Source: a virus (lineage: Duplodnaviria; Caudoviricetes). Taken from it: 64,000 bases of DNA. The stretch is from IMG/VR virus record IMGVR_UViG_3300014208_000023, positions 32,001 to 96,000 of that record; one strand, 5' to 3'. Shown piece after piece: positions 23,701-41,596 of the stretch; the stretch's first letter is position 1, and each line of letters opens with the position of its first letter. A program made the translations under genes and the position numbers. The notes under the pieces are model-generated. The model did no database searches and was not told the DNA's origin. It was given only the letters and a program-made list of their open reading frames with translations.

Positions 23701-24336
23701 ACCACGACATCATCGCCCTGCTTGAGCAATGAGATCACGCGGCCACATGCGGTGTTGGATTCGATCAACACCGCACCATCAGGAAGGTCTGCGCGACTCT
23801 GGCTGATAATGGAATAGATCGCCTTGATCTCTCCACCAACCGCGACACCGGCATGATCCCGCTCGACCTTGACTTCACTCATTGGGAGTTTCCTTTTGCT
23901 TGGGCGGATACAGAAGCCAGGACGAAGTTACCGGTCCAGGCTCTCTACGAATTAGTCCTGCCCGAAGACAGCGACTAACAACATCATAACCAGCCGATTG
24001 TCCAGCGCCAGCCTCTTTTGCAGCTTCGCGAATAATCTTGCCGGGATTCTCAGTAACAAACTGAATGACCTTTTTCATCTTAGGTCCGATCATATTCCCT
24101 CGTGAGCTAACTCTTTATCCCCGGCTAGACTATCAATCTAGCCGGGGATGGTCCGCTCCGTAACAGGCAACCGAATTGGCAGCCTAAAGAGAATGGTTAC
24201 TGACATAGACAGGCTTCTATGGCTGGAGTCCAAAATAGCCTCCGCCTATTCCATATCTGCTAACAAGGATACTACCCGGCCCATATGCTACGGATGAGTC
24301 CGTTAGCGTTACCCGTGGTTCGCGTTACCTGTTAGC

Positions 24337-24364
24337 ATTGTAACCACACTCTTTAGAATGTCAA
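24337..24364 (-). promoter_or_regulatory. Sigma70-type promoter
   Basis: TTGACA-16 nt-TACAAT. Confidence 0.75.
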
Positions 24365-24484
24365 TAGACTATCCCTCCCGATTATCCCATAATCCGTTGC
24401 AACGGCTTGGGGTCGGGAGGGGATCTCCACTACACAATTACTAACTTAGGAATGAGAGTAGCTACTTCTCATAACCATTACAAC

Positions 24485-24632
24485 GAACGGCCCTCATCAG
24501 TAACCGCTTCACGGTTATACGTATTCACCATAGCGCCTGGCCTTTGATACTTGATCAGTTCCTAGTTAGGAAGCCAGTCTGTTGGAATGCCACCTACGTT
24601 CAGTCGTAGGCGTGAATACGTTACGGCCTCTC
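24485..24632 (-). ncRNA. Type II hammerhead-ribozyme-like element (core variant)
   Basis: Stem III 10 bp perfect, GUA triplet, stem I TAACCG/CGGTTA, CTGATGA core, stem II GGCC/GGCC; GTAA instead of GAAA and one extra G. Confidence 0.6.
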
Positions 24633-24728
24633 ACGTGTCTTTGAAGCTTCCCCCATACCCAGACGTTCCGGGGGAAGCATTAGCACCCATAGGGAAGCTT
24701 ACGCTTCCGGTAGTCTAGGGCTGTTCTC

Positions 24729-26487
24729 CTAGGCTTTCCAGCGACTCTCTTTCAGAGGAGAGCCATTGAAGGATCGCCACTCACGAAAGTATCGTCCCTT
24801 GGAATCCCTTTCGTTGTAGTTCGGGCGGACGATTACCGCCTTTCCCTTTGCACGCAGACTCTCTCCGAGAGAGATTGCGTGTTCCAGGTTGGTGAATGTC
24901 GCATCCACGAAACGATCCCCGTATGTGGTAAGATCGCCAACGCACTTACAGGTGATTACAGAGATAGTAGCCTTAGCCATTGAGCCTTGGTCTCCTGGTA
25001 GCTTCTTTTTTTGAACCATCCCCATAGAGACAGGGGCCTAAGCTCCTGTTTACGTCGCTTGGTTGCCTTGATCCGATTGTGATAGATCGCCATAGCCGTG
25101 TGACCACTAAAGAGCCACTTGATCGGAGAGATCATTCCTTGCGTTTGATACCTACCGTACTGCTTCATTCCTTGCCCGCATTGGCAATGATGTTATGGCA
25201 GATTGCTCGGTAGTGCGCAACCACTTTCGGATCGTTCGTGACCTTTCCGGTGCCGGGAATGAACTTCCACTGGATGAACTTCCATGCCAGCTTGTACCTA
25301 CGATCCTGTTCCGGTGTGAGAAACGAGAATAGCTTTCTCGCTTCAACTTCTCTGTCAGAGAGACTCATGTTACGAGAGCTTTCTTGGTGATAGAGTCGGC
25401 CACTTTCTTGAGAGCGAGCACTTCGGCTTCCGCCTTCTCAGCTCTAGCCGTGAGCCTACGAGTAGCAGAATCCGATCCATCGATGAATGCTTCGTTGATC
25501 ACGCGGAACGTTTCGTTGATCTCGTCCTGATCGCGAAGACTCAGATAGTCCTCGATGGTCATGCACTCGTTGACGCAAGCCACATGGTTGAGCTTGTTCA
25601 GGAAGTACCAGGATGCGTAGGAAGTCGTGTTCTGGCAAACCCAGGAACCGGCACCCTCATTCCACGATCCATCCTCTTCTTCGTAACAACCCTCTCCGAT
25701 GTAGCCGAGCGGAAGCGTGAACTTCCGCATGTAGTAACCATCGAAGTTGGCCTTATTACAGATAGCGACGTAGGTGCGAGAAGGTGAAGAGACGATCTTC
25801 TTTTCAGACATTACTGCCTCCTAATTCGGGCCTGTAACAACTTCTGTGTAGCACATGGGTTTAGATTTTACGAGCTATCAGAGGAGACTCGAACCCCTCC
25901 AGCCATGGACTTCACATTATATGCTACAAACCCGAATTAGAAGGGGGAAGGTAGTTAGTCTTCCCCGATCCTTTCTTACTGATAGAGCCAGGCATTGACT
26001 GCCCGGCGAACCTCCGTGCATGCAGCCCGAACATCGAAGGCATTGATCGTGTGCTCCATCACAAGAGGAGGAGGAATCTTGCCCTCCTTCTTGAGAGACA
26101 CCACAACCTCACCCACATACGGATTCTTCGGAATCATTCGACTCTCCTACTTGAACCAGCGTCTAGCTCTTGCTCGGAATGCACGAATCGCTCGTTTCAG
26201 GCAAAGAGAACAATGCCTGGCGTCTCCTTCCTTCATGCCTTGAACTTCTCCATGAGAGCCTTGGCATCCGGGTAGCCGAAAGGTTTCAGAGCCTCCTCGG
26301 CTTGTTCCAGAGCTTTCGGATCGTTCTCGCGTAGAAACGCATTGATCTTCGGGTCGAGAACCATCATCAGTAGCGTTCGAGCCGCTGACTTGCCCTTGCA
26401 CTCTTTCGGGGGAATAAGCTTCTCAATAGCAGCTTGCCTTTCGGGACCGGGAGGAGGCAACATGATGCCATGTCCAGTGCCAGCCAT
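24729..26487 (-). other. Hypothetical CDS (24729-25025, 24956-25168, 25165-25368, 25365-25811, 26233-26487)
   Basis: Contiguous ORFs with strong AGGAGG-type RBS. Confidence 0.7.
25817..25944 (-). promoter_or_regulatory. Long-stem leader element with internal T-loop hairpin; sequesters the RBS of 25365-25811
   Basis: Arms 25817-25830 / 25931-25944, inner stem 25846-55 / 25919-28, GAGGGG-TTCGAGT-CTCCTC. Confidence 0.65.
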
Positions 26488-26677
26488 CAGTGTTGCCCCA
26501 ACGTCTTACGTAATCCTCGATTACCAGACCCAGCGTAGCCTAGGCTGCGGTAGAAACCTCTTACGTAGGCTTCCCAATGTGAGAAGGTAGGAAACTCCTG
26601 CTTGAACCTCATACAATCTTTGGAGGATTGTTTCTGACGTTGGCCATCACTGCGACCCAATTCGCTCGACTGACGCA

Positions 26678-27010
26678 TTAGTGCTGCCCCCACGTCTTTC
26701 CGCCATCGTGAGAATGAACACCAGCAGCGATTGCCTTGGGATTGACCTTTCGTCCGCTCATTCCCTCGGCCTTGAGTATCGCCTGACGGAGAACCCACGA
26801 GTTAGTGGCCCGAAGAGAATTGAAGGCACACACGTCAGAGATACCGTCCCGATCCTTCCATCCTTGGAAGACGATCGCGCCGTTCGTTCCGATTCCGATT
26901 CTCACGGTACCGGTCTGAATGTACTGTTCCAGACGCTTGAGAGCTTGTTCCACTTGAGACATTCTCTGAGTGAGAGTCTGACCCTGAGATAGCGCTGTCA
27001 TGCACGCCAT
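26678..27010 (-). CDS. Conserved-type hypothetical protein (GVHSHDGG.TW..H C-terminus)
   Basis: GAGGT RBS; third gene of the AAA module. Confidence 0.75.
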   Translation of the reverse strand: MACMTALSQGQTLTQRMSQVEQALKRLEQYIQTGTVRIGIGTNGAIVFQGWKDRDGISDVCAFNSLRATNSWVLRQAILKAEGMSGRKVNPKAIAAGVHSHDGGKTWGQH

Positions 27011-27033
27011 TGTGATTACCTCGTTTGAGTTAT

Positions 27034-27140
27034 CCTTCTAACTCTATTCAATAGACATGCGCCAGATAAGCTCCGGCCTAGTTCCTATCTGAATCTATTG
27101 AATAGAGCTAGAAGGGGGAGACTTGGTTAGAGTCTCCCCT
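27034..27140 (-). repeat. Intergenic long-stem element plus GGGGAG hairpin
   Basis: Arms 27034-27055 / 27094-27115; homologous to 27999-28118. Confidence 0.8.
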
Positions 27141-27146
27141 CATCTA

Positions 27147-27977
27147 TCAGTTAGAAAGATCTAGAGAGTCGTCCGCGGCCATGGGATTCAGGGCCATCGT
27201 TCCGGCGACGGTTCCGACTTCTTCGGAGAAGTCGAGATCCTGCGCCGCCACTTGCGGAGCCTCCTCTTCTTTCGTGAGCGTAGGCGGTTCCTCATAGTCG
27301 AGGAACACTTTCTGAGCCTTCTCCAGTGCGAGAAGACTGACGCGGTAGTCCTGAACCACGTCGATAGCGACCGATCCCTTCTTCTTGATCGTCTTCGCCA
27401 TCTCACGTGCGGCGGTTCGTGCAAGCTCGATTGCAGTCCTCGCCTCGCCCTGTTCCTTCTCTTGCATCATCTCGGCCAGTTGATTGGCCTTAGCGATTGC
27501 TTCCCGAATGGCCTCGGGATCCATCTTGTTGATCGCCCCGCTCATCTCAGCGAGAAGACTGCGCATCTCTCCGGCGATTGCCATTGCAGTCTGCTCGTCG
27601 TTGGCGAGAAGCTTTGCCTTGAGGATGTAGAAGCGCACCTTCGTGTAGACAGACTTCGCATTGAAGTCGTCCATGAGTTGCCGGGCGATCTTGATTCCCT
27701 GGTCCAGCTCCGCCTCCTTATCTTCCGGGCAGAGAAGACAGAACGGAGTTTTGACGCAGAGACGACGGATCTGGTACAGGACATTGCCCCGCACCTTGAC
27801 CGCTTCCTCGTGCTCCTCCACGTCGAAGATTGTCTTCTTCGTGGTCTTCTCTTCGGTGAGCACGCCTTCGGTGCTCTGATCGCTCTCCTCGTGGAGAGTC
27901 TCGTATTCGATACCTCCCTTCATGCGGGAAGTCAGTGCGATCATGAATCCGGGTCGAAGCAGTTGCATCTTTGCCAT
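27147..27977 (-). CDS. Helical/coiled-coil hypothetical protein associated with the AAA ATPase (start revised to MAKMQ)
   Basis: GAGG RBS 5 nt before ATG at 27977; long helical ORF with acidic tail. Confidence 0.8.
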   Translation of the reverse strand: MAKMQLLRPGFMIALTSRMKGGIEYETLHEESDQSTEGVLTEEKTTKKTIFDVEEHEEAVKVRGNVLYQIRRLCVKTPFCLLCPEDKEAELDQGIKIARQLMDDFNAKSVYTKVRFYILKAKLLANDEQTAMAIAGEMRSLLAEMSGAINKMDPEAIREAIAKANQLAEMMQEKEQGEARTAIELARTAAREMAKTIKKKGSVAIDVVQDYRVSLLALEKAQKVFLDYEEPPTLTKEEEAPQVAAQDLDFSEEVGTVAGTMALNPMAADDSLDLSN

Positions 27978-27998
27978 TGTGTCCTCGTTTGGAGTTAT

Positions 27999-28118
27999 CC
28001 CTCTAACTCGGTTCAATTAGACTCGGGCGCTCAACCAAGGGACAACGCCCGGTATATTGCTAAGCCACCACCTAATTGAACCGAGTTAGAAGGGGGAGTC
28101 TGTGTTAGAAACTCCCCT
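27999..28118 (-). repeat. Intergenic long-stem element plus GGGGAG hairpin
   Basis: Perfect 18-bp inverted repeat CTAACTCGGTTCAATTAG / CTAATTGAACCGAGTTAG. Confidence 0.85.
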
Positions 28119-28129
28119 CCTAATTGCCG

Positions 28130-29749
28130 TCAGTCCAGATCCAGCAGATCGTTGGAGCCAGACTTAGCGGCCACCTTCTCAGGCTTGCTTGCGCTCAGGG
28201 CCTTGTCTGCCATGAACGTACGAATCTCTCCGAGCTTGACCGCCATCGTCAGAGACAATGGTACCACATTCTCGGCCGCCGTCAAGAGATCCTTTGTCGT
28301 GATCTGACGTTCTCCGTCGTTGAAGGCCGCGAACATGGCTTCCGGGATGATGGAAGCAATCTCCGCGCCGACCCATCCTTCCGTTTTCTTAGTGAGAGCC
28401 GGAACGTCGATCCCTTCTACCCTACCAGACTGCTTGAGGCAGGTAGAGAGAATCTGTTCCCGATCCGTTGCGGTCGGAAGGTCCACCCAAAACACTTGGT
28501 CGAACCTACCTTTACGCATCAGCTCAGGCGGAAGTGCCCGAACGTCGTTTGCCGTAGCAATGACGAACACCGGGGCCTTGCACTCTTGCATCCAGGTAAG
28601 AATCGTTCCAAGCTGATCCTTGGAAACTCCGCCATCCTCACCACCGGCAGCCCCGAGAGACTTGTCGATCTCATCGAGCCAGAGAACGCAAGGGGCAAGG
28701 GCTTCTGCCATTGCGAGAGCCTTACGAATGCTGGCTTCAGAGTCTCCGACATACTTGGACTTGCGTGCTCCAAGGTCGCACTTGAGTAGCGGCATCTGCC
28801 ATGCGGAAGACACGCACTTCGCCGTGAGACTCTTTCCACCACCGGGAACACCGGCAAGTAGAATGCCCTTCGGAGACTTGAGCCCGTAAGCCCTTGCCGC
28901 CGCTGAAAACCCGTTCTTACGGATACTCAGCCAGTCTTTCAGGACTTCCAGACCGCCGACCGCTTCCATGCCGAGCGGATCGGGGTCGATCCATTCCAGC
29001 ACTTTCTCACGTGCAATGACTTGCTTCTTTTCGGAAGAGATCACTGCCGGGTCGATGCGCTTGAGAGTAACGAGACTCCGATTGAAGCAGCTCTGAATCT
29101 CGGCCGCCGACAACCCAAGAGCCGCATCGATTGCAGACTCACGGGTAGTTGCGTTCGGAATCTCCACCTTGGCCGGATCTAGGCGGAGAGAATCGAAGAT
29201 CCTTTCCACGTCAGAACGGTCAGGCATCGGGTAGTCGATCAGATTGGCCTGACCGATGAGATCCTGGGGAATCTCCGAAGACGGCGTGAGAATGACGATC
29301 GCTCTCTGTTCAGCAGAGGGGGACGTTCCCGCTTCCGTCGCCGTGTTCCGAATTGCCCGGAGAGTGATTGGATCCTTGAAGGCATTGATATCCTTCAAGA
29401 CATACAGACACCGATCTGGGACTTCGCGAATTGCCTGTAGGACCACGAGAGGATCCGTACAGGGCTGACCACCGCTAGAAAGCGGCGTGATGCTTGCAGC
29501 CTTCTTCTCTCCGTAAGAAGACTGCGCCTGAGTGAATCCGAGAGTGACGAGCTTTGTTTCGCCCTTCTCGGTTCCGTATTCCGTCAGACCACTCACGCAA
29601 TCCCAGAAGCGGATTCGCATGTTGGCCGGAAGGGCATTGATAAGCGCCCCTTCCACACGCTTCTCCTCACGAGAGGAGATCCAGAGAAGAGAGACTCTGG
29701 CACGAAGAAGTGCCGTAATCTCCGCATTGACCTTTGCAGATCGAGACAT
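28130..29749 (-). CDS. AAA+ ATPase, Ycf46-like
   Basis: Walker A GVPGGGKS, Walker B VLWLDEID, SRH ATANDVRALPPELMRKGRFD; degenerate N-terminal AAA-like domain. Confidence 0.93.
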   Translation of the reverse strand: MSRSAKVNAEITALLRARVSLLWISSREEKRVEGALINALPANMRIRFWDCVSGLTEYGTEKGETKLVTLGFTQAQSSYGEKKAASITPLSSGGQPCTDPLVVLQAIREVPDRCLYVLKDINAFKDPITLRAIRNTATEAGTSPSAEQRAIVILTPSSEIPQDLIGQANLIDYPMPDRSDVERIFDSLRLDPAKVEIPNATTRESAIDAALGLSAAEIQSCFNRSLVTLKRIDPAVISSEKKQVIAREKVLEWIDPDPLGMEAVGGLEVLKDWLSIRKNGFSAAARAYGLKSPKGILLAGVPGGGKSLTAKCVSSAWQMPLLKCDLGARKSKYVGDSEASIRKALAMAEALAPCVLWLDEIDKSLGAAGGEDGGVSKDQLGTILTWMQECKAPVFVIATANDVRALPPELMRKGRFDQVFWVDLPTATDREQILSTCLKQSGRVEGIDVPALTKKTEGWVGAEIASIIPEAMFAAFNDGERQITTKDLLTAAENVVPLSLTMAVKLGEIRTFMADKALSASKPEKVAAKSGSNDLLDLD

Positions 29750-29811
29750 TCGTTTTCTCCCTAAAAAGAGATTATCTACGATAGAGTCTGTAACGTTCCT
29801 CCTACCTTGAG

Positions 29812-29840
29812 ACTGTAACTCATACGAGCTAGAGTGTCAA
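29812..29840 (-). promoter_or_regulatory. Sigma70-type promoter embedded in an inverted repeat
   Basis: TTGACA-17 nt-TACAGT; flanked by arms 29798-29814 / 29833-29849. Confidence 0.7.
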
Positions 29841-29880
29841 GGTAGAAGGGGAGGATTGCGCCTCCCCAACTACCGATCGG

Positions 29881-30063
29881 CTACTTCGTGTAGACGTTGA
29901 TCCCGATCTTCATGCCCATGTCGGAAACGTCCGGGGGCGAAACCGGGCCTTCCGTGGTAGCGACGATGGTGGTCTTCCCGCTGGCAGAAGGACCGAACTT
30001 TTTGGTCAGGTCGATCTTGATCACGAGGATATCACCCTCGCGGCTCATCTGAATGTTTTTCAT
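29881..30063 (-). CDS. Small conserved-type protein (FGPSASGKTTIVATT...IGINVY)
   Basis: Motif recalled from a widespread ~60-aa hypothetical family; start revised to MKNIQ. Confidence 0.7.
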   Translation of the reverse strand: MKNIQMSREGDILVIKIDLTKKFGPSASGKTTIVATTEGPVSPPDVSDMGMKIGINVYTK

Positions 30064-30091
30064 TGACTTGGACTCCCGATTGTGAGTGAGA

Positions 30092-30349
30092 CTACGAAGA
30101 GAGATCCTGGAAAGGAATCTCCTTCTCCACACGCCTACGGTTCTCCCTGATCTGCCGTTGTAGATCCTTGATTGCGTTGTCTGCCGTGTTACCTGCGCCG
30201 GTAAAACCGATGCAAGCCTTGACCGCTTGCCAGAGAGGTTTCTTACCTCCTCTGACTTTCTGGCAAGTCACATGCCAGTAAAAGGGAACCGGCTTCACTT
30301 GGGATGGCTCGTGATGGTGAATGCCGCACTCCACGCCTTGATCCCCCAC
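30092..30349 (-). CDS. Hypothetical protein (HicB-like GNTADNAIKDL segment)
   Basis: G-x-T-x-x-x-A-I-x-x-L pattern only. Confidence 0.45.
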   Translation of the reverse strand: MGDQGVECGIHHHEPSQVKPVPFYWHVTCQKVRGGKKPLWQAVKACIGFTGAGNTADNAIKDLQRQIRENRRRVEKEIPFQDLSS

Positions 30350-30398
30350 CTACCACCATAAAGGTGGTTCATGCGGAATTGCGTGGAAGCGGCAACGA

Positions 30399-31037
30399 TC
30401 ATGCCTTCGATGATTGCTTCCATCTGATATCCACAATACACATTGCGGATCCTTTCTTGCGCTTGGCGTTGCTTTCGAGACCTTGAGACACGTAGGGACG
30501 AACAGAAACGATCTTGGCTCCTACGTCAGAACAGGACTGACGCAGATAGTCAATCCGACCATCCAGATCGGAGAAGCCATCATCCCGGCCGTTCCTAAAG
30601 GTAACAAGAGTCTTACCTTTGTACTTGGCTTCGGTCAAGGCCTGTAGGACCGGAAGTGCAATGTGGGTCGCTTCTACGACATTGCAAGCCAGATCGATAT
30701 CGACGGCCCCGAGATTCTTAGCCCCACGACGAATGAGGTAAGGGCGAATCATGTCCTGAATGGGCCGGTGAATAGGAGGAAGTATGTGTAGGCGCGACTT
30801 CAACTTGCGGAAGTCTGGAATCACATACTCGGTTGCCTTGATCACTCCAATGTCGGTATCGACCACTTGGATCGCACCCTTCCACCGAAGGACATTCAGC
30901 ACCCCCAAGAGACCGTGACTGATTGTTAGAATCTCCTTGGTAGGAAGAATCTTATACAACCACTCACACCTCTCATTGTCTTTGGCGTAGGAGATCGGAG
31001 TGTGCTGCATTGAGCACACATTGTTCCGCTTTCCCAC
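30399..31037 (-). CDS. SAM-methyltransferase-fold-like protein
   Basis: IQVVDTD, AVDIDLAC, TLVTFRNGRDD; aligns by eye with 15387-16070. Confidence 0.45.
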   Translation of the reverse strand: MGKRNNVCSMQHTPISYAKDNERCEWLYKILPTKEILTISHGLLGVLNVLRWKGAIQVVDTDIGVIKATEYVIPDFRKLKSRLHILPPIHRPIQDMIRPYLIRRGAKNLGAVDIDLACNVVEATHIALPVLQALTEAKYKGKTLVTFRNGRDDGFSDLDGRIDYLRQSCSDVGAKIVSVRPYVSQGLESNAKRKKGSAMCIVDIRWKQSSKA

Positions 31038-31431
31038 TTAGACCTGAGCCGAAGCCCAGACCACGAAGCATGCCAGACCGACGAAGATCAGATTGGCCCC
31101 GGTGATTGCGTAACCACCGACAACCATGGCGACGTGATGGATGCTCGGGAACCAAGTCCCGAGAAGACCGAGAAGCAAGATGCTTCCCAGAGTGAGGAGA
31201 ACGAAGACGATTGCGTTTGCCATTGTCCCTCTACTTGTGAGAGCCGGAATCGTATCCGGGCGTAGGTGACTCAGCCCAACGGAGAATCCTTTGATCTTCC
31301 GCCTGCTTACGCTCCTCCTCCCTCTGAATCCCGGTTTGCACGCCTTCGACCGTATGAACGACCTTGACGAAGCCTACCACGAACACGAGAGTGACGCCAA
31401 GAACAATCAGACAGAGAATGAGCTTGAGCAT
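31038..31431 (-). other. Two small membrane proteins (31038-31223, 31231-31431)
   Basis: Hydrophobic TM segments, RBS present. Confidence 0.7.
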
Positions 31432-31606
31432 TGATTCTCCCTTAGAAACAACTAGAGGCAGTCTAACGCGCTACACATTCCTAGACGTTCGGCCTTCAGT
31501 GACCCTTACTAGATCCAGCCGAGGCTAGATGCTTCAGGAGTATGCACGCCCTAGTTATCCGGTAGTGTTTTTCTCACATACGTTTTCATGTATGTGGCGC
31601 ATTAGA

Positions 31607-31731
31607 ATCCCTCTAATCAAGTCCCAAGAACACTTGCCATTGTGATCCTGCTGCTAGTTAGACTAGAGGAGGTTTCCAGACGAGCGGCATGGAACTTGAT
31701 TAGAGGGATGAGAGGGATCGGCCCCTCATCC
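31607..31731 (-). repeat. Intergenic long-stem element plus hairpin
   Basis: Arms 31607-31624 / 31691-31709, hairpin 31704-31731. Confidence 0.7.
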
Positions 31732-32466
31732 GTCTATGTCAGAAGTACGGCTTAGGCTTCTTACCTTTGCCGAGGTTGATGTTCTGGATGAGAAGCTCCT
31801 TAGCCGCCTCATCCAACTGAGAGGTGTCGAGAGGAAACTCCCCCTTGTACGGGGGAGAATGCTCCTCGGTCTCGTGCTCCTCATCGGGATCGAACCTACG
31901 CGACTTGCCCACTTCTACTTCGCCTTTCTACGTAAGAGTACGAACGTTCCCAGGAGTAGCAGACCAACACATCCAAACGGTTGCGGCGGCTTGCTTGACC
32001 TTGGAACAATCAGGGATTCGGTTATTGTGGAGAACCGATCGAGCCATTGCGGCGATCAGTAGGTCTCCAATCGTGGACGAGCACATCATGCTAGCATCCA
32101 CGATAGCAGTTTGTCAACCAAGAAGTCACTCTTGGACCTACAGCGCGGATCGTACTGAGGCTTGTAAACCACAACCAATCCGCACGGGTCTTCCAAGCAA
32201 CCCTCGGGAATCCACGCCCACGACCAGCAGCGGCGAATGTCAGGTGTGGTTGAACATTCGCCGGCTTCGACTAGGGAAGCCAATTCGTCCTCGGAAGGAA
32301 GACGACGTTGGGGGAATGGGGGAAACCCATACCCTCACGCTGGAAGGGGTCGGCGGCAACAAGAGCCGCTTTCAGATCCTTGACCTTGACCATACCAAGC
32401 TCTGCCTTGTGCTGAGCGTGGAACGGGCAAGTGTGCTGTCTGCAATCGTGATCCATATGTGTGGAT

Positions 32467-32612
32467 CCTCCTCCGTCTCAACTAGATACGACCGGGAGCC
32501 TTTCTAGAATGCTCCTAATACTGGGGGAAAGTCTGGCAGTTGGGTTAGTGTCCAGTAAGTCCCCTGTATGTAGTTGAGACGGAGAGGGATGAGGGATTGG
32601 TTAGATCCCTCC
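32467..32612 (-). repeat. Intergenic long-stem element covering the RBS, plus hairpin
   Basis: Arms 32467-32489 / 32566-32588. Confidence 0.7.
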
Positions 32613-32796
32613 TCACCTACTCACGGCTTCGGAATCTCCAATGACTTGATCCTCTCACCAGAGGTAGTCATGGAATGAGAAGTGTCAACCTTGCCGTTCT
32701 CGATTACCCTAGACACCCAAAGATCCGCATCCGGGTAATAAGGACAGTGAGAAACAACGACGTAGACCGTGGAGTGTTCCCGAAAGAACTTCCCGA

Positions 32797-32994
32797 TCAT
32801 TCGACGTGCGCGATCTGAAAGACCTCTTCGGTCTCTCCGTCAACAAGCAACTCCTTCACCTTGTACGTGTGAAAGAGATGCTCACACTGAATAGCCGGGA
32901 GAAAGTCTCTCTCGACTTCAGCAAGATCCTTGGCCCGTACGATCCTGACTTCCAGGGCGCACGGACCTTTGGCAGTGAGAACGAACAACGCCAT
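32797..32994 (-). CDS. Hypothetical protein
   Basis: GAGGAGGT RBS 6 nt before ATG. Confidence 0.75.
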   Translation of the reverse strand: MALFVLTAKGPCALEVRIVRAKDLAEVERDFLPAIQCEHLFHTYKVKELLVDGETEEVFQIAHVE

Positions 32995-33000
32995 GATGTT

Positions 33001-33123
33001 ACCTCCTCGCTATTACCTCTATCCGCAAGGGGTATTAGCTACCCCATCACCGCCCAGCTTTCTAGGACATAGTGGCATCTAGAAGTAATAGCGAGAAGGT
33101 AGAAAGGCTATGGCCCTTCCACC
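33001..33123 (-). repeat. Intergenic long-stem element covering the RBS, plus hairpin
   Basis: Arms 33001-33021 / 33080-33100, both mismatches G-U on the minus strand. Confidence 0.75.
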
Positions 33124-33227
33124 TATCTCCGAATGAGAGTAGGGCCGCGTTGGTTAGCGGGCGGTCTCATTCCCTGGTAGTGAGAGTGTAGGGAGCGGCG
33201 GCCCCCTACACTTTAGGCTGCGATGAT

Positions 33228-33797
33228 TCACGCCGACTTCCTCTTCTGAGAATTGCTCTCAGTGAGCCAAGCCGGACGGGGCTTCGACTTGTAGGCTTCC
33301 AACCTCGCAAGTCTGGCTTTGCGGGTCTCCTCGCTTTCCATCTTGGCGAAAGCTTCCGCTTCCAAGGTCGGAGAGACCGGGGGCGGGGTCATGGGCTTGT
33401 CGAGAGCAGGCGGCGGAATGAACCGCGCTTGCTCCCGAACAACCGGAACGAACGTGTGAGGAGCGCGAACAACCTCGCGCTCCTTCTTCGCGAGCTTGGT
33501 AGCCTCGCGCTTCGCCGTGGCCGATGCTTTCTTGGCATCGACCTTGGAACGCTCCTCCGGCGAGAGAGCGTTGTAAGCGGCGACCTTGGCTCGCTTCCGA
33601 GTCTTGATCGCTCGCTTCTCGGCGTACTCGGCCGCCAGCGCCTTCCGCTCCTCGTGAGAGAGGCGGATCTGCTGGCCGGTTGCGAAGTCCCGTCGGTAGT
33701 ACGGGATTCCCATCGGCAACTTCGGCTCGCTCGGTCCCTCGGGCACGACTGCAACCGCGAACGGTAGCTGAAACCTCGGATGCGTTCCGATATTCAC
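33228..33797 (-). CDS. Basic Ala/Lys/Arg/Pro-rich hypothetical protein, first gene of the left block
   Basis: AGGAGG RBS + GTG; biased codon usage. Confidence 0.8.
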   Translation of the reverse strand: MNIGTHPRFQLPFAVAVVPEGPSEPKLPMGIPYYRRDFATGQQIRLSHEERKALAAEYAEKRAIKTRKRAKVAAYNALSPEERSKVDAKKASATAKREATKLAKKEREVVRAPHTFVPVVREQARFIPPPALDKPMTPPPVSPTLEAEAFAKMESEETRKARLARLEAYKSKPRPAWLTESNSQKRKSA

Positions 33798-33827
33798 TTG
33801 AGCCTCCTAGCAATTAGGTTTGACCAC

Positions 33828-33937
33828 CTATCTCTACCGGTAATAGAGGAGAATTGACTTATTGCCGCTACAAGAGACGGCATCCTTTATTACCAGTAGA
33901 GATAGAAGGGAGAGTCACACTGCCAATGTGACCCTCA
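33828..33937 (-). repeat. Intergenic long-stem element plus hairpin
   Basis: Arms 33828-33850 / 33883-33905, hairpin 33905-33937. Confidence 0.7.
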
Positions 33938-33939
33938 CC

Positions 33940-34730
33940 TCCTACCCTTCGGGACCACTTATCTACGACGCCTTACGTCTCTCGCACCTCAGTCTCACCG
34001 AACCTAACGACTAGCCTGTAAAGCCAATCTGTCAGCTATCGCCTCACGTCTTCCCGGTACTAGATTAGCCATCCCAAGGGCGGCCCACCATTCCCAGGCA
34101 TGTAGACATTACTACGATTGCCTTTCTTAGATTCAGGAAACCTTGGATAGAAAGCACGTTGCCTCCGTCCTTAGCATCCCAGCGTAATCCGGCTCCAATC
34201 CTCCTATTGAAGCCTACGTATGGCGGTTTCTTAGACCTAGACCATCCCACTAGCTTGCTACTCATCCCTTGATTGTCCTATCGGATTGACTATTCAGCGC
34301 GGTACCTCTAAGGCCAGCGAGCTTGTCAGGCTCACACTCCAAAGACGCACGTTGCTTAGGCGATCCACCTTTCGGTGGCTGTCGAAAGTCTCCTCAGTCT
34401 AGCTACTCCTCTAGTCGCGCCGGCCGTTCCCTTGGAAACGGTTAGCACCTATTGGAGCCTTTGAAAGATTCAACTTTCCTGGCCTTAGTTCGCGATAGGA
34501 TCGAAAGGACCCCTTGCTTACTAGCGTTCGGTGCCGGGAACGGTTCCGGCGCAGTTTCATTGCTTGCTAGTAGGAAGCCCCTACTAGTCCGAGCGATATA
34601 TCCTCCGCTACCCGACTTTACGGGTAGTTACGGATTATGGCTGTATCGGGATAAACCCCACTACCCGTTAGGGTAGCCGCCACCGCTAGCAATGCTTTTC
34701 ACGGGAGTTTCGGCCCCGTGTTCCCGTCTC
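33940..34730 (-). ncRNA. Large (~800 nt) structured non-coding RNA candidate
   Basis: Directly downstream of a consensus promoter, no credible ORF, many hairpins and perfect long-range helices. Confidence 0.7.
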
Positions 34731-34734
34731 AACT

Positions 34735-34763
34735 AACCTAGCACCTACGCGCTAGGCTGTCAA
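34735..34763 (-). promoter_or_regulatory. Sigma70-type promoter of the large ncRNA
   Basis: TTGACA-17 nt-TAGGTT with TG just upstream of -10. Confidence 0.75.
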
Positions 34764-34798
34764 GGTATGTTTAGACGTTTGAAAGTGTCGCCTTACGC

Positions 34799-34961
34799 GC
34801 TTTCCCTTTCTTCCGTCTCGCCGTTCACTCTAGCAGTGTTTGCTTTAGTGTCCAGCGGGTTTCGGAAGATTGTTTCGGCGCTACCTGCTTTCCTTTCTTC
34901 CGTCTCGCCGTTCACTCTAGCAGTGTTTGCTTTAGCGTCCAGCGGTTTCGGAAGATTGTTT
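34799..34961. repeat. Two ~75-bp near-identical direct repeats
   Basis: 34799-34875 and 34887-34961 (core CTTTCTTCCGTCTCGCCGTTCACTCTAGCAGTGTTTGCTTTAG). Confidence 0.95.
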
Positions 34962-35113
34962 AGCAGGTTTCGGCTTTGGTTCCTTTCTGGTAGCGACTCG
35001 ATAGCAGGTAATGCACGACCCTTGCCAACCTTGACCGGCCCTATCAATCTGCTAACTATGCGACATTGCTAGGCTATTCGGTTTCCGCTGCTACTGGAAT
35101 TGGGGTGGTGGGG

Positions 35114-35374
35114 ATTACTGCCACGGAAGTTTTTTTTATTATCTGTAACCTATTAGAATCATTACGGAAAAGTATCTTGTGTCAGAATTGTATCATTGGG
35201 ATCAATTGCTACAGTCGATTACAGTGCCAGCGGATAATTACAGTGCCAACGGAATTCGCCGTTCCCGTAGGGTGTGAGGGCTGCCGCCCCCAGGCGGCCT
35301 CCCCTACTCACAGAAACGAACAAGAATGATACGGTTAGGATACGGTTAGGATACGGTTGGACGGTTGGATGGTT
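35114..35374. repeat. Iteron-like and short tandem repeats
   Basis: ATTACAGTGCCA(G/A)CGGA at 35218 and 35237, variants at 35114 and 35161; GATACGGTTAG tandem decay series 35328-35374. Confidence 0.85.
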
Positions 35375-35393
35375 CGTATGCGGCTGGGATAGA

Positions 35394-35672
35394 CTATCTC
35401 AACCTATAAGACCCAAACTGCTTAATCGTCTTTCTTCTATGACAATTAGCACATCTCATCTGACATTGAGCTATTTCTGCCACTAACCTATCTAACGAAC
35501 AGTTATTGGTTATAAGCCTATTGATACCATAGGACTTCCTGCCTACGTGGTCAAACTCTAATACTACCGGATCATTCTCTCCGCAATCTACACATGGATT
35601 ACTTAATAGATATCGATATACGTATTCTCTTTTTATATCAGTTCTTCTTTTATCACCAATCTTGTCAGCCAT
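35394..35672 (-). CDS. Small HNH endonuclease
   Basis: PCVDCG..LEFDH...CQMRCANCHRRKT. Confidence 0.9.
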   Translation of the reverse strand: MADKIGDKRRTDIKREYVYRYLLSNPCVDCGENDPVVLEFDHVGRKSYGINRLITNNCSLDRLVAEIAQCQMRCANCHRRKTIKQFGSYRLR

Positions 35673-35693
35673 ACGTTAGATATATCCTATCCT

Positions 35694-36323
35694 ATGCAAC
35701 ACCAACTACTAGACATATTCCAGTTCGATAATGTAGATCCAGGACTGACTCCAAAGTATTACTCCGCCGATAATAAGAAACACGACATTCTAGTTATGAA
35801 CGGAGATGGTTCATTTCAAAAAGGAAAGCTTGGAGTAACACCTGACACTGGTATTCAGATTCCTCTCTTTCCTATGAGCGAACCCTGGAAACTATCTCAC
35901 AAGACTCCTCAGGGAATGCAATCACTACTTGAAACCTTCATTAGTTCTTTTCTTGGTCAGATAGAGCCTATAATGATAGACTCAATATTAGAGATTAAGA
36001 GCTACATTAACAATAACGGCCATATAGTAGCTGGAACTGCCATTAGGAATGCTGAGGGTATGGAACAGATATGTCGTGGCTACACCAATATCTATGAGCT
36101 CGTTAATAAGGCAGAGGCTAGCAATACCATTAATGACAGAAGATGTGTCTTTCTTAAGTCTATGGACCCCTATACAATAATGATTTGCCCGGAACCAGAA
36201 GAAACCGGGATATTCAGCTATATGGGCCATGTTCAACCAGGAACCAATAATGTTACTAATAGAGAAATTGGCTTCTTTTTATTACCGAAAGATATTAAAG
36301 TATTTAAACTCCAGGTAGCGTGA
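35694..36323 (+). CDS. Divergent major-capsid-protein-like paralog
   Basis: D-PG..P.Y..D, IPLF and ICPEPEETG segments recall a large-phage HK97-fold MCP family; paralog of 39389-39991. Confidence 0.45.
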   Translation: MQHQLLDIFQFDNVDPGLTPKYYSADNKKHDILVMNGDGSFQKGKLGVTPDTGIQIPLFPMSEPWKLSHKTPQGMQSLLETFISSFLGQIEPIMIDSILEIKSYINNNGHIVAGTAIRNAEGMEQICRGYTNIYELVNKAEASNTINDRRCVFLKSMDPYTIMICPEPEETGIFSYMGHVQPGTNNVTNREIGFFLLPKDIKVFKLQVA

Positions 36324-37674: not shown

Positions 37675-38141
37675 AGCGAAGTTGTTTCCTTATGTTTCTT
37701 GGATTCGGAATGAGAAGTAGTTATATGAACCTTAATCTCTTTATTGGCCATAACCAGAGAAATGGCGTGATCTGGGTAATAGAATACCATCTTCTCTCCG
37801 GTATCTATCTTATGTTTTGTATTGAAGGTAGATTGGATAAACTGGGCTAATTTGCGATAAAGATGAAAGGAATTGGCGGAAGCGGTAATGATTGAAAACT
37901 GGTAATCAAACCGGCCTTGCTTGTGTAGCTTGGAAACATCATCTCCAAAGTTACGATCTATTATTTGATAAGCAAAAGTATAGATTGAGTTTATTATAGC
38001 CTTTGTCTCCGGGAACTTCGGTAATATGGCCGTAGGAGATTTTTCAGTCTCTGGGAACCTTTCCGTAGTTGCGGGTTGATCCTTGTTCTCCGCTTCCTTA
38101 GCGAAGGATTCTGCCAGAGCAATAAGATCCATAATCTTCAT
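37671..38141 (-). CDS. Hypothetical protein with N-terminal LIALAESF motif
   Basis: Clean ORF, 4-nt overlap with the next gene. Confidence 0.75.
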   Translation of the reverse strand: MKIMDLIALAESFAKEAENKDQPATTERFPETEKSPTAILPKFPETKAIINSIYTFAYQIIDRNFGDDVSKLHKQGRFDYQFSIITASANSFHLYRKLAQFIQSTFNTKHKIDTGEKMVFYYPDHAISLVMANKEIKVHITTSHSESKKHKETTSL

Positions 38142-38250
38142 ATAGATATGCTAAATTATAATCAATCCTGACAATCATTTAACAACCTATTGATTCCTGT
38201 TATAATAGCAGCCAGAAAGAACAATCCAATGGAGATAAAGATTAATATAT

Positions 38251-38472
38251 TCATAGTGTAGTTATATCGGGAAATCTAGTCCAAAGCCAATCTTTATCCC
38301 AAGTTTCTATTGAGCTATGGTCAGTGAATGAAGTATCGATAGACCAATCATTCTTTGTTTCAACATGTCCAGTGCCGGCTTCGTATTGAAAGCGACCAAG
38401 TATAGACGGCCTGAGGATTATTATATTGGCCCTCTTATATATTAAATGTCGGGGATCGGTTTTAATCCACAT
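38251..38472 (-). CDS. Trp-rich hypothetical protein
   Basis: GAGG/AAAG RBS, clean ORF. Confidence 0.6.
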   Translation of the reverse strand: MWIKTDPRHLIYKRANIIILRPSILGRFQYEAGTGHVETKNDWSIDTSFTDHSSIETWDKDWLWTRFPDITTL

Positions 38473-38745
38473 TATCTTCTTTCCTCTCTTGAGATATATC
38501 TAATCAGCAAACCAATGGCTATCATAATACATAGTCCGGCAACCTCTCCAATACTCATAAATCAGTCTATATCATAGGTCTTTCTAGTTTGAATTCAGAA
38601 GAGATTATGATTAGATTGAGGGGAATGGCAAAGAGGTTATAGTCTAATTGTAGGCTTTATACTGTCAGGGTCTGGAGGGCATATAAAATGGGGTCCGATC
38701 GGAAATCTACAACGGTAATGTCCGTATTCAGCGGTATCTATCAGA

Positions 38746-39309
38746 TCACTTATAATCTTCAAGCTTAATGTTCTTAAGCTTTCCTACAACATCCTCAAGC
38801 TGGCCAACCCTATCCTTATCCTTGAAGCTGGCCGGCCCTTCATCCGAAGCCTTGCGCGTAAAATCTAAAGTTTTATTAACACGAACATCATATTCATAAT
38901 CATCATTTGGTGGTGCCGTCTTAAGCTTACTATAGCTGGACACATCTTCCTGATGAAGCGTATCGTATTTAAAACTTTCCAAAGTTTCGGCGCCTGATTG
39001 AGTAATGACAAAACGCTCCGGAAACTTGCGTTTAGATGGTACATGTGTTCTCTCGCGTAGTCTGGTCGGATCTCCGAGCCTATTTCTTTCGACATCTTGC
39101 GTAACTCCATGATTCTCTGGAACCAAGTCCAATTCTCCCCAACGCTGTAGTCTTGAGGCAATATTCCATTCTTCATCAGTTAAATCGCTAGTGGCCACAT
39201 ATCCCATTGGACTGTTATTGATTTTATTAAGCAACTTAAGCTCTGCCTTGGGGTCTCTGGTAGATTGGGAAACCACATAAAATTGGTGAGCAAGCTTGTA
39301 TAGGTTCAT
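38746..39309 (-). CDS. Hypothetical protein with N-terminal LYKLAHQF motif
   Basis: Clean 187-aa ORF. Confidence 0.75.
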   Translation of the reverse strand: MNLYKLAHQFYVVSQSTRDPKAELKLLNKINNSPMGYVATSDLTDEEWNIASRLQRWGELDLVPENHGVTQDVERNRLGDPTRLRERTHVPSKRKFPERFVITQSGAETLESFKYDTLHQEDVSSYSKLKTAPPNDDYEYDVRVNKTLDFTRKASDEGPASFKDKDRVGQLEDVVGKLKNIKLEDYK

Positions 39310-39388
39310 AGTATAATGCCATTAGAGGAATTGATTATTTGATATTTTTTATGGCCATCATAGTGAGCTTCTTGATATATAAAGAGTT

Positions 39389-39991
39389 ATGCCTGCCGAA
39401 ATTATAGAAATTCTCCATAAGGATATTTTGCCTATAAACCTACCTCCCATTTATGAGATGAGGGATGGTAATGGTAACGCGGCGGGCTTCGAAGGTCTTT
39501 TCTATCGCAGAGGGCTTACTCCAAGAGAGTATAAGTCATTGCCGGGCGAACAACTTGAAGTGCCACTAGTCAATTTAACCAGACCGGCCCATGGCTATGA
39601 GTCATATCTTCCAGAAGTTAAAGATGAAATTGAAACGTTTGTTAATGAATGTGTTTCAATTCTTCCCTATGCTCAATTGAGTATTAAGGAGGCCCTAACT
39701 AGCGCAGACGTTTTCTTTCAGGATAGGGGAACGTTCATAAAACATATCCTATATTCATCCGACCTTACGGAAGAGCTTTCTCCAGTTTTTAGTTATGTCC
39801 TTAAGTCCCAGTGCATAAAGCTTAAAGACAAGAAGCGAACATTGGTTATATTGCCGGAGCCCGTTTGTGCTGGCACCATAGCCATTAAGGAGGCCCTGGC
39901 TAGTTATGGTCCAACTTCTGAACCACTAGACAAAACTAGATTTGGAATGATGATATCCAGTGTGTATTGGTGCGTCAATGAAGTCCCCTAA
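39389..39991 (+). CDS. Divergent major-capsid-protein-like paralog
   Basis: ILPINLPPIY and LVILPEPVCAG segments; aligns by eye with 35694-36323. Confidence 0.4.
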   Translation: MPAEIIEILHKDILPINLPPIYEMRDGNGNAAGFEGLFYRRGLTPREYKSLPGEQLEVPLVNLTRPAHGYESYLPEVKDEIETFVNECVSILPYAQLSIKEALTSADVFFQDRGTFIKHILYSSDLTEELSPVFSYVLKSQCIKLKDKKRTLVILPEPVCAGTIAIKEALASYGPTSEPLDKTRFGMMISSVYWCVNEVP

Positions 39992-40037
39992 TTTTGCAGT
40001 TAAAGAGTTCGTTAAAGAAGTAGGCGCAATAAGGTAG

Positions 40038-40604
40038 TTATTTTTTAACTTTCTCAATATAAGAATGGACCTTACGAATCCAAACCTTAAACTCTCGTAA
40101 CGACATTTTACCCTTGGCCCAATTACAAGTTCGGCAGCAAGGAACAACATTTTTTTCGTTATGGGGCAGCGAATTGTCTTTTCTGTCTAGCCCATTATAT
40201 TTGAATGTTCCGTGTAGGATAGCAAAATCAGATACACCTTCTTTTTTGCACTTAAAAATATTAATTGAATTTGATGACTCTATTCCGCAGTAATGACATT
40301 CTTTTTGAGAAAGCTTAAGGAACTTATCAAATGATAAGTCGCCATCGCTATAGCCGCTTCTATAAATGAATTTGGCAGAGGCAAGCTTGGCGGTAGCTGG
40401 ATCGGAATGTGATTGAGAACAACCGCAAGATCTGCTTGGTCTATCATTTTTTGTGAGACGGTCCTTGGTAAAAATTCTCTTACTGCCACATTCACACTTA
40501 CATAGGTAGGCCAATCTTGCGCGCCCAGAAACTATAACACACTCTTCTTTTTTAAGAACAGTGAGCTTTCCAAATACTTTTCCAATAAAATCATCAACAG
40601 TCAT
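40038..40604 (-). CDS. HNH homing endonuclease
   Basis: GKVFGKLTV, CKCECG, CHYCG, YNGLDRKDN, NVVPCCRTCNWAK. Confidence 0.9.
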   Translation of the reverse strand: MTVDDFIGKVFGKLTVLKKEECVIVSGRARLAYLCKCECGSKRIFTKDRLTKNDRPSRSCGCSQSHSDPATAKLASAKFIYRSGYSDGDLSFDKFLKLSQKECHYCGIESSNSINIFKCKKEGVSDFAILHGTFKYNGLDRKDNSLPHNEKNVVPCCRTCNWAKGKMSLREFKVWIRKVHSYIEKVKK

Positions 40605-40611
40605 TGATTCC

Positions 40612-40953
40612 TTAAATTAAAATCAGATACTTTTCGATTTGACCAGGCCTCTTGAAAAGTTTAATCATAGTGGATTCGTCGCATTCAAACTCCATTAGGT
40701 TATCGGCTGATGATTCTTGAAATATCACCATAGTTTGGTTCGAACATATAAATTGGCAGCAAATGTTTTTATCGCTTATTTGTTTATAGAGCCTTATATC
40801 CCTAACTTCCGTTTGGTCATCATACCTAATGGTGCATACTAGATCATAGCACTCAATGCAACCAATAGCATTGTTCAAAGGATACTCAATGCCAATTTTT
40901 GATTTGCAGCCTGGGCACTTCTTGAATGTTTTAAGAAACTTATCTACCGTCAT
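40612..40953 (-). CDS. Zn-ribbon hypothetical protein
   Basis: CPGC / CIEC pairs. Confidence 0.7.
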   Translation of the reverse strand: MTVDKFLKTFKKCPGCKSKIGIEYPLNNAIGCIECYDLVCTIRYDDQTEVRDIRLYKQISDKNICCQFICSNQTMVIFQESSADNLMEFECDESTMIKLFKRPGQIEKYLILI

Positions 40954-40990
40954 TGGTGTGGCTTGTTCCCGTGCAATCGCATATACCGGG

Positions 40991-41596
40991 CTACAGCTTT
41001 AAATACTTGGCATCGATTTTTTTATTTGGAGTGACGATAATAAGGTGTGGAACGTCAGAAGCATAGTGAGTTGTATGCGTAACGTCATATCCCTTCCAAA
41101 GCTCAGCTGGCTCCTTAAGCGTATAAGGCATAACCTCGCCTAATGACAGCTCTTTTTGTCTTTTATCAAACTCCTCGTCTGACATATTATCCTTGTAGAT
41201 AGCCAACTCTACTCCAATAAGTTTAGTCTTCGGCTCACCACTCATTAGCTTGGATAGGTTTATAGTTATCGGAATAAGATCTAGCTTATGGATATTGTGT
41301 TTTTTAGTTATCTTGGTCCAATCTGGCAAAGTAAAGAAGGCACTAATTCCTCCAACCAACCCTTTCATTTCTGGATCTTCTAATTTTTCTTCAACTTTTT
41401 TCTTGAAACTTTTGCCGTCATCTGGTCTTGCTAGATTTAAAGCCTTCTTGTCTTTGACCAATTCTTCTGCTGACAAAAGGCCCTTAGTCTTAATGGAATC
41501 TATTGCATTTTTAGGAACAAAAGTAAATAAGGTAATTTCGCTAGCTAGTATATGAAAAGATTGAGATAGTTTTATAAGGCGACTTATATTACTCAT
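40991..41596 (-). CDS. Possible ADP-ribosyltransferase-fold protein with N-terminal LIKLSQSF motif
   Basis: LFTF..IDSIKTKGLLS, ISAFF, PHLII..KIDAKYL; start revised to MSNIS. Confidence 0.4.
   Translation of the reverse strand: MSNISRLIKLSQSFHILASEITLFTFVPKNAIDSIKTKGLLSAEELVKDKKALNLARPDDGKSFKKKVEEKLEDPEMKGLVGGISAFFTLPDWTKITKKHNIHKLDLIPITINLSKLMSGEPKTKLIGVELAIYKDNMSDEEFDKRQKELSLGEVMPYTLKEPAELWKGYDVTHTTHYASDVPHLIIVTPNKKIDAKYLKL

Follow-up and report, generated by a model that had tools for sequence, protein, structure and literature searches.

A large, conserved structured RNA at the head of a small-gene block in a clade of roughly 430-kb phages

Among RNAs of bacteria and phages that exceed 500 nucleotides (nt), very few have a conserved tertiary architecture, and RNase P, the group I and II introns, OLE, GOLLD, ROOL, and HEARO each opened new biochemistry. 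GOLLD and ROOL occur in phages and prophages; according to PMC12286853, GOLLD, ROOL, and OLE form RNA-only homo-oligomers through RNA-RNA contacts. Other structured RNAs act in cis behind strong or tandem promoters at the start of long co-directional units, and these (HK022 put, lambda nut, Bacillus EAR, and rRNA leaders) are 20 to 130 nt long with one or two hairpins. rRNA operons combine tandem promoters, a structured leader, and RNase III stems, and the early region of T7 is transcribed from promoters A1 to A3 into mRNA that is processed by RNase III. Here we describe an RNA element of about 0.9 kb (0.8 to 1.1 kb in relatives) on the minus strand of a 64-kb stretch of DNA, referred to below as the window, which comprises positions 32001 to 96000 of the 428,320-bp virus record IMGVR_UViG_3300014208_000023. 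An earlier reading made from the letters of the window and their open reading frames (ORFs), called here the sequence-only reading, had proposed a promoter-driven structured RNA of about 800 nt at this place that matched no known family.

On the outcome of covariance-model searches, we class the element as a new family among large structured phage or bacterial RNAs. A cmscan search against Rfam 15 (4,227 families) gave no match at the gathering score in the whole window or in eight homolog loci; no match was obtained even at E ≤ 10 in window 29000-36000, and none of relevance at E ≤ 1 in nine homolog loci. Homologs were reached through the neighboring proteins (a 189-amino-acid [189-aa] ORF product and an AAA ATPase) and then through their contigs. 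A homologous ORF-free region of 1.3 to 2.2 kb was found in eight diverged lineages, all metagenome relatives of this phage, with nhmmer E-values from 1e-119 to 1e-11. The lineages are the window (with the nearly identical L014), L007 (=L008, L009), L012 (=L013), L019 (=L020), L024, L021, L022 (=L023), and L025 (=L026), with partial copies in L010 and L011; one copy of the L007/L008/L009 group lies within a 430,963-bp contig. Identity of the leader to the window is 64 to 75% over aligned columns, about the same as that of the neighboring AAA ATPase gene (70 to 74%).

The region is noncoding and folds strongly. As the sequence-only reading had said of roughly 790 nt, no credible ORF is present: the longest on the RNA strand encodes 66 aa (34265-34065), none is longer under codes 11, 4, or TAG=Q, and the top ORFs differ in place and size across all eight homologs, and no reading frame is conserved. 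Alternative codes (table 4, TAG=Q) had been considered as the cause of the missing ORFs and were rejected, as they open no convincing long frames. The minimum free energy of 34730-33905 (minus strand) is −325.8 kcal/mol, compared with −286.2 ± 6.3 kcal/mol for dinucleotide shuffles (z = −6.25); the plus strand of the same interval gives z = −2.63. The proposed extent of about 800 nt holds for the structured region, but the conserved noncoding block is larger, running from 35394 to 33798 (about 1.6 kb, promoter region included). A separate observation is that the trinucleotide UAG occurs 21 to 36 times per leader (window 33800-34742 and all homolog leaders), about twice the expectation from composition and often as CUAG or GUAG within conserved motifs.

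Local stability alone would not single out this RNA, because folding z-scores are negative across the whole GC-rich block (about 26900-35040), coding parts included. In the part scanned (24000-35040), the sequence beats its shuffles along much of its length, even inside the AAA ATPase gene, and z is near 0 in the low-GC DNA beyond 35040. These scores, together with other highly structured spacers in the block, could be taken to mean that the region is merely the remains of a gene or an ordinary GC-rich spacer that owes its structure to its composition. We find this scarcely credible: the region is as conserved as the neighboring ATPase gene, it keeps the lengths of its inter-anchor segments and no reading frame, and its compensatory changes lie far above column-shuffle nulls, as follows.

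The sequence-only reading had named beforehand, among the outcomes that would count against it, a lack of covariation among homologs and a strong match to a known Rfam family. It survived both tests, and the homologs in eight lineages do covary. The 3' domain was aligned by anchors in all eight, and the spacing from one anchor to the next hardly varies (62, about 47, about 40, and about 152 to 176 nt in most lineages). Its RNAalifold energy was −85.9, whereas column shuffles that preserve conservation gave −39.0 ± 5.1 (z = −9.1); changes on both sides were found in 33 of 69 pairs (null mean, 12.6; null maximum, 22); the reverse complement gave z = −5.6. For the full RNA in the four closer lineages, z was −10.2 with 75 covarying pairs (null, 35), and the complement gave z = −6.8. 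A separate count in the 3' domain found both-side changes in 22 of 40 predicted pairs. The gap-free alignment of the hairpin on loop CUAAGAAAC is out of structural register and was left out of such counts. In helices of the 3' domain that span about 240 columns, a single pair can occur as up to four Watson-Crick types, and the 3' hairpin, which is rich in G-U pairs, has 7 of 20 pairs changed on both sides. Hairpins with invariant loops are more stable in their own flanks than in those of another lineage (means of −7.4 and −3.4, −5.7 and −1.8, and −8.1 and −5.3 kcal/mol, respectively). These statistics come from eight lineages in all, and the shuffle nulls ignore phylogeny; the central domain of the four distant lineages was kept out of them because its automatic alignment was poor and unreliable. 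Taken together, a conserved, strand-specific, multi-domain RNA fold is well supported by these alignments.

The strand specificity also bears on whether the inverted repeats belong to a DNA-level element, such as a replication origin, packaging site, or injection-stop region, and only mimic an RNA fold. The locus lies at the border of two compositionally different genome blocks, a few kilobases from the cumulative GC-skew minimum (window, about 38000-41000), and T5-type phages have large repeat-rich noncoding regions near their early genes. The conserved pairing, however, is specific to one strand, with the RNA strand outscoring its complement; many conserved G-U pairs would be A-C mismatches if the other strand folded; covariation extends to nested helices about 250 nt apart, for which duplex DNA has no need; and self-comparison gave no direct-repeat (iteron-like) family. 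A DNA-level element is thus highly improbable.

The fold consists of a 5' hairpin followed by three domains, each closed by long-range helices. All of the hairpins and complementarities listed in the sequence-only reading are present at the coordinates given there, and comparison among lineages separated those that are conserved from those that are not. The 5' hairpin CACGGG/CCCGUG (34700-34720, minus strand, as are all features of the RNA below) has homologous counterparts with different stems, namely, CGUGGG/CUCCACG, GCGAG/CUCGC, and UAUAGG/CCUAUA. Domain 1 (34558-34694) is closed by the helices CAUUGCU/AGCAAUG and AGCGG/UCGCU and encloses the hairpins CUACCC/GGGUAG, CUACCCG/CGGGUAG, and CUAGUAGG/CCUACUAG; both-side changes in the four closer lineages affect 5/7, 4/5, 3/6, and 4/7 pairs. 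A hairpin between domains 1 and 2, GCCGG-AACCGUUC-CCGGC (34531-34552), is nearly invariant in stem and loop in 8/8 lineages and lacks covariation because it does not vary. The GAAAG/CTTTC hairpin is present as described but is lineage specific.

Domain 2, the central domain (34251-34523), is built of nested long-range helices and contains the K1 hairpin (see below) and the hairpin CCACC-GAAA-GGUGG (34378-34365). Its closing helices pair 34509-34501 with 34272-34265, 34500-34490 with 34285-34276, and ACUA with UAGU (34489-34486 with 34292-34289). The second of these includes the predicted helix CCTATCG/CGATAGG, which is conserved and covaries to ACCAUCG/CGAUGGU. In the alignments, ACUA/UAGU, which adjoins a conserved CAAUC, covaries to UCUA/UAGA, ACCA/UGGU, UCCAAG/CUUGGA, and UCUAGAAG/CUUCUAGA. 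The 10-bp helix CTAAGGCCAG/CTGGCCTTAG fared less well: its arms are perfect complements, but the 3' arm CTGGCCTTAG (34317-34308) is carried on a lineage-specific insert (34295-34345) that is missing from L007, L019, L024, L021, L022, and L025 and replaced by an unrelated insert in L012, and the conserved equivalent of this helix is ACUA/UAGU.

Domain 3 (33942-34247) starts with the hairpin on loop CUAAGAAAC (34247-34218), followed by a second hairpin, GGCUUCAAU-AGGAGG-AUUGGAGCC (34214-34191), that covaries in four lineages (for example, GGUUUCAAU/AUUGGAACC and GGUAUCGAU/AUCGGUACC). The remainder forms a rod of four stacked long-range helices (34187-34133 with 34001-33942) enclosing the K2 hairpin and a hairpin at 34029-34009. 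A pseudoknot had been proposed from a 9-bp crossing helix, GGCTCCAAT/ATTGGAGCC. Its arms are perfectly complementary, yet the 5' arm (34459-34451) exists only in the window and L014, and the 3' arm (34199-34191) sits in the local GGCUUCAAU-AGGAGG-AUUGGAGCC hairpin. Only in the window and L014, 34448-34459 is a near-duplicate of 34203-34214 (GGCUCCAAUAGG and GGCUUCAAUAGG, respectively); the apparent pseudoknot arises because this lineage-specific segment nearly duplicates the 5' arm and loop start of the AGGAGG hairpin, and it is not conserved.

A different candidate for a tertiary contact emerged from the invariant loops. The K1 hairpin (34422-34443) carries the loop UCCAAGGG (34436-34429), invariant in 8/8 lineages, whose word UUCCAAGGG is the most conserved of the whole RNA. 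The K1 stem covaries: 89% of its cells are paired, compared with 51.5% in shuffles (0/500 reach this value) and 50% or less with a slid partner; both sides have changed in 6 of 7 pairs. The K2 hairpin (34053-34097; 7 of 10 stem pairs covary) holds in its loop CCCUUGGG (34080-34073), the complement of the K1 loop. Eleven 7-mers are common to at least seven of the eight lineages, and the sole reverse-complementary pair among them is CCAAGGG/CCCUUGG, from these two loops. From this complementarity, UCCAAGGG and CCCUUGGG probably form a candidate kissing contact of 7 to 8 bp that would join the central to the 3' domain.

The RNA ends in a 3' module (33901-33946) that consists of element 1, the hairpin 33936-33910, and element 2. 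Element 2, CCUUCUAUC (33909-33901), is invariant in 11/11 sequences and has two possible partners. Upstream, it can pair with element 1, GGUAGGAGG (33946-33938; consensus partner form, GGUAGRAGG), extending the conserved hairpin 33936-33910 to 20 bp. Downstream, it and its extension can pair with element 3, GAGAUAGGUGG (33834-33824; consensus, GAUAGRAGG), in a long hairpin of about 22 bp (33910-33824, of which 33824-33900 follows element 2); in the alignments, this extension covaries between UCUCUAC/GUAGAGA and AAGU/ACUU. The two pairings differ by 1.3 to 4.8 kcal/mol. Positions adjacent to element 2 in the helix covary while element 2 itself is frozen, as expected for a segment that has to fit two partners. 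The terminator-like end hairpin of the sequence-only reading is real and conserved, but what follows it is CCUUCUAUC rather than a U tract. The phage's own genome holds no paralog of the RNA (nhmmer with the single sequence and with a 3'-domain profile finds one copy only), and the K1, K2, and element 1 to 3 motifs are not enriched elsewhere in it.

The first gene after the RNA (33228-33807, minus strand) has the Shine-Dalgarno sequence AGGAGG (33807-33802), a GTG start at 33797, and a product of 189 aa, and no U-tract terminator was found between it and the RNA. It belongs to the same protein family in 8/8 lineages (the window, L007, L012, L019, L021, L022, L024, and L025), with homologs at 53 to 99% identity. 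The product is basic (net charge, +17) with PPP-rich linkers; an AlphaFold2 model contains long helices at residues 48-76 and 80-107 (block-mean pLDDT, the predicted local distance difference test score, about 87 to 96). Searches of this protein gave no Pfam or PHROG family, nothing in Atlas, and no PDB fold match (best E, 2.6). In L019 and L024, element 3 itself serves the first gene as its Shine-Dalgarno sequence; the corresponding sequence of the window lies 17 nt beyond element 3; and in L010, L021, and L022, about 300 nt separate the 3' module from the gene. This extra segment (L010, about 240-540; L021, about 6480-6790; L022, about 5020-5330) is conserved and possibly another structured module; Rfam gave no match to it.

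Upstream, three candidate promoters are stacked on the RNA strand. P3 (34735-34763) is the promoter of the sequence-only reading, which had called it near consensus; its −35 box (TTGACA) is perfect, and it has a 17-nt spacer and a TGn extension, but its −10 box (TAGGTT) matches at only 3/6 positions. A genome motif scan placed P1 at 34914-34941 (TGGACG, 16 nt, TG-n-TAGAGT; within a tandem repeat of about 88 nt) and P2 at 34827-34854 (TGGACA, 16 nt, TG-n-TAGAGT; homologous copies in most lineages). The motif has six matches in the 428-kb genome, three of them stacked here, compared with 0 to 3 in shuffles, and two to three σ70-like copies are kept in most homologs. From P3, we infer a transcription start near 34728, so that the RNA would begin within about 10 nt of this promoter.

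The same region holds other conserved signals. A σ54-type −24/−12 spacing motif (TGGCA, 7 nt, TGCAT; window 35011-35027, minus strand) lies on the RNA strand about 70 to 90 nt upstream of the first tandem promoter and is conserved in 7/8 lineages (TGGCC in L025), with only three matches in the genome. Outside the window, a 225-aa ORF (genome C1:114987-115091) has a weak Sigma70_r2 match (22 bits, below cutoff), and an 808-aa AAA+ ORF (genome C1:375032-375382) matches Sigma54_activat at 37 bits, a family that also matched 14/14 control genomes. Farther upstream (window, about 35270-35327, minus strand), the 19-mer ATTCTTGTTCGTTTCTGTG is near-invariant in 8/8 lineages, occurs once in the genome, and stands ahead of a GC-rich hairpin; a plus-strand terminator-like hairpin with a T8 run (35105-35124) separates it from the promoters. 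This arrangement points to a conserved region for divergent or antisense control. At the edge of the conserved noncoding block, a 92-aa HNH endonuclease fragment (35394-35672, minus strand; phrog_2255, E = 4e-22) is inserted in the window lineage only.

The long block of small genes on the minus strand has the RNA at its upstream end. GC content is 35 to 40% over most of the genome, where the standard code gives good reading frames, and window 13000-35000 is part of this block, with 50 to 58% GC. The "direct terminal repeat" of the record measures only 22 bp, which fits an overlap from circular assembly and not physical genome ends; the record ends are thus arbitrary. The small minus-strand genes run from genome position 67 kb to position 1, so that the block extends for at least 67 kb from the RNA. 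The earlier description of the element as promoter driven and at the head of an early region fits these tandem promoters and this block, with "early" timing a presumption. Among the neighbors of the RNA is the AAA ATPase gene (29749-28130), which has many homologs. The next spacer after the first gene (32995-33228, minus strand) also folds strongly (z = −6.18) and contains a 22-bp helix in which the Shine-Dalgarno sequence GAGGAGG of the following 65-aa gene pairs with an upstream CCUUCUC; hiding of ribosome-binding sites seems to be a theme of the gene block.

With no U-tract terminator ahead of the gene, and with the 3' module directly adjoining the ribosome-binding site, an operon mRNA leader is a more probable description of the element than the free-standing RNA ending at 33905 that had been proposed. 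While the existence of the structured RNA is well supported, its cis-regulatory mechanism is what we infer from this arrangement, and our first-ranked reading, at about even odds, is that the element is a cis-acting structured 5' leader of an early operon mRNA. In such a leader, host σ70 RNA polymerase would start at the three tandem promoters, and the RNA would be the 5' part of one polycistronic mRNA that carries the long block of small and presumably early genes. The K1/K2 kissing loops would dock the central domain and the 3' domain with each other. Element 2 would pair either backwards with GGUAGRAGG, extending the terminal hairpin, or forwards with GAUAGRAGG, forming the long hairpin just ahead of the first ribosome-binding site. 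The folded state would then set the fate of the downstream early message, possibly through access to the ribosome-binding site, cutting of the long hairpin by host RNase III, protection of the 5' end, or antitermination, with the conserved basic protein encoded downstream as a likely partner or target.

Several points weigh against such a leader. Fine adjustment of a single ribosome-binding site would scarcely call for 900 nt with three conserved domains. In the window, L007, L012, and L025, element 3 does not include the Shine-Dalgarno sequence, and about 300 nt is inserted ahead of the gene in L010, L021, and L022; direct masking is therefore not a universal mechanism. The K1/K2 contact lacks covariation, since neither loop varies except for a single G-U-compatible change in L019. 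The comparison draws on only eight lineages, with poor central-domain alignments for the four distant ones, and the promoters, the start site, and read-through into the gene are all predictions from sequence.

Some of the same features would suit a large RNA or ribonucleoprotein that acts in trans in host takeover after being cut off the mRNA, for example, by host RNase III at the element 2/3 hairpin. Such an RNA might serve as scaffold, sponge, or decoy, might bind the neighboring basic protein, and might multimerize through K1/K2. Its size, three-domain architecture, and invariant loops exceed the needs of known leaders; the K1 and K2 loops could pair between molecules as easily as within one; a perfect hairpin of at least 20 bp that resembles an RNase III substrate follows the 3' module; the RNA is always paired with a gene for the same basic, helical protein; and in three lineages the 300-nt insert breaks the link between the RNA and the ribosome-binding site. 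RNA-only homo-oligomers of GOLLD, ROOL, and OLE, as described in PMC12286853, offer a precedent. On the other side, no terminator or mapped processing site bounds a separate RNA, binding of the protein to the RNA is only putative, and the element has no sequence or model similarity to GOLLD, ROOL, or OLE. No RNase III gene was found in the phage genome, so that any such processing would need the host enzyme. We consider a trans-acting role possible, if on the unlikely side. Slightly less likely again is its strongest form, a new ornate phage RNA class in which a released three-domain particle, alone or with the basic protein, would be assembled through UCCAAGGG/CCCUUGGG into a ribonucleoprotein or multimeric scaffold for host takeover.

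The likeness to GOLLD, ROOL, and OLE noted in the sequence-only reading holds for scale and ornateness: like them, the element is several hundred nucleotides long and multi-domain, and has many covarying helices and invariant loops, and its complementary K1/K2 loops could allow the same kind of oligomer assembly. The likeness does not extend to the covariance models of GOLLD, ROOL, OLE, HEARO, or raiA, none of which matches the element, or to the frequent tRNA neighborhood of GOLLD and ROOL, as ARAGORN found no tRNA or transfer-messenger RNA in the 64-kb window. The element also differs from GOLLD, ROOL, and OLE in lying between promoters and a ribosome-binding site, without a terminator, and always next to one basic-protein family.

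A ribozyme at the operon head, self-cleaving or otherwise catalytic, would account for a tertiary architecture that is large and conserved and includes nucleotides both invariant and unpaired; RNase P and the group I and II introns share these traits. The locus differs from these in having an intact gene start and no split ORF; no Rfam 15 ribozyme or intron matches it, even at E ≤ 10 in the window region, and flanking exons, tRNA context, and an intron-encoded protein kept across lineages are lacking, the HNH fragment being present in one lineage only. We judge a ribozyme to be very improbable.

In its position, the element resembles HK022 put, Bacillus EAR, lambda nut, and rRNA leaders, as a presumed cis-acting structured RNA behind tandem promoters; it is promoter proximal (P3) and heads the minus-strand block of at least 67 kb. 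Unlike these, it has about 900 nt and three domains, the compact two-hairpin fold of 70 to 130 nt typical of put and EAR is not found, EAR (which is in Rfam) gave no match, and no boxA-like sequence was recognized by eye. With the T7 early region, it shares three stacked host-type promoters and long, perfect hairpins between small early genes (33910-33824 and the next spacer) that are possible RNase III sites; T7 has no large conserved folded leader domain, and processing of the element is hypothetical. As in riboswitches and attenuators, an invariant segment has two mutually exclusive conserved partners near a ribosome-binding site, and, as in ribosomal protein leaders, a basic protein is encoded just downstream. 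No known riboswitch aptamer in Rfam matched, however, and any sensing part would be far larger than known aptamers; the Shine-Dalgarno sequence is part of element 3 in only 2/8 lineages, and the element has no U-tract terminator. The element fails the defining tests of each compared family that could be tested, and its own features are the embedding in a presumed leader, the two-state 3' module, and the partner gene.

Among the collections searched, the element is confined, as judged by homology, to one clade of roughly 430-kb phages, where its place is constant in eight lineages (behind tandem promoters and ahead of the same basic-protein gene family). Distant AAA ATPase loci from IMG/VR (41 to 47% identity; L002-L006) had no RNA homolog and no ORF-free gap of 400 nt or more, and IMG/VR probed with the 189-aa protein and DNA ligase gave no close relatives. 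Exact-pattern scans with four conserved motifs in IMG/VR, JGI metagenomes, and GTDB genomes returned nothing or chance matches, with no homology by nhmmer or blastn for the resulting loci (L015-L018 and L027-L039). No close relative of this phage was found among cultured phages, a DNA similarity search against 50,697 phage records had no match, and the literature on structured RNAs of huge phages yielded nothing relevant. A 67%-identical homolog of the AAA ATPase (P0023) is recorded in a EukProt protist transcriptome (Spiro4), a hint of transcription of a related phage in a bacterial culture associated with a protist.

The element thus adds, to the very few RNAs of its kind, a large RNA from uncultivated 430-kb phages with a well-defined position. 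Should it control or protect the early block of at least 67 kb that it heads, these phages would launch infection with an RNA device of unusual intricacy; were it instead set free as a separate particle, it would count as a new ornate RNA for which a protein partner can be proposed.

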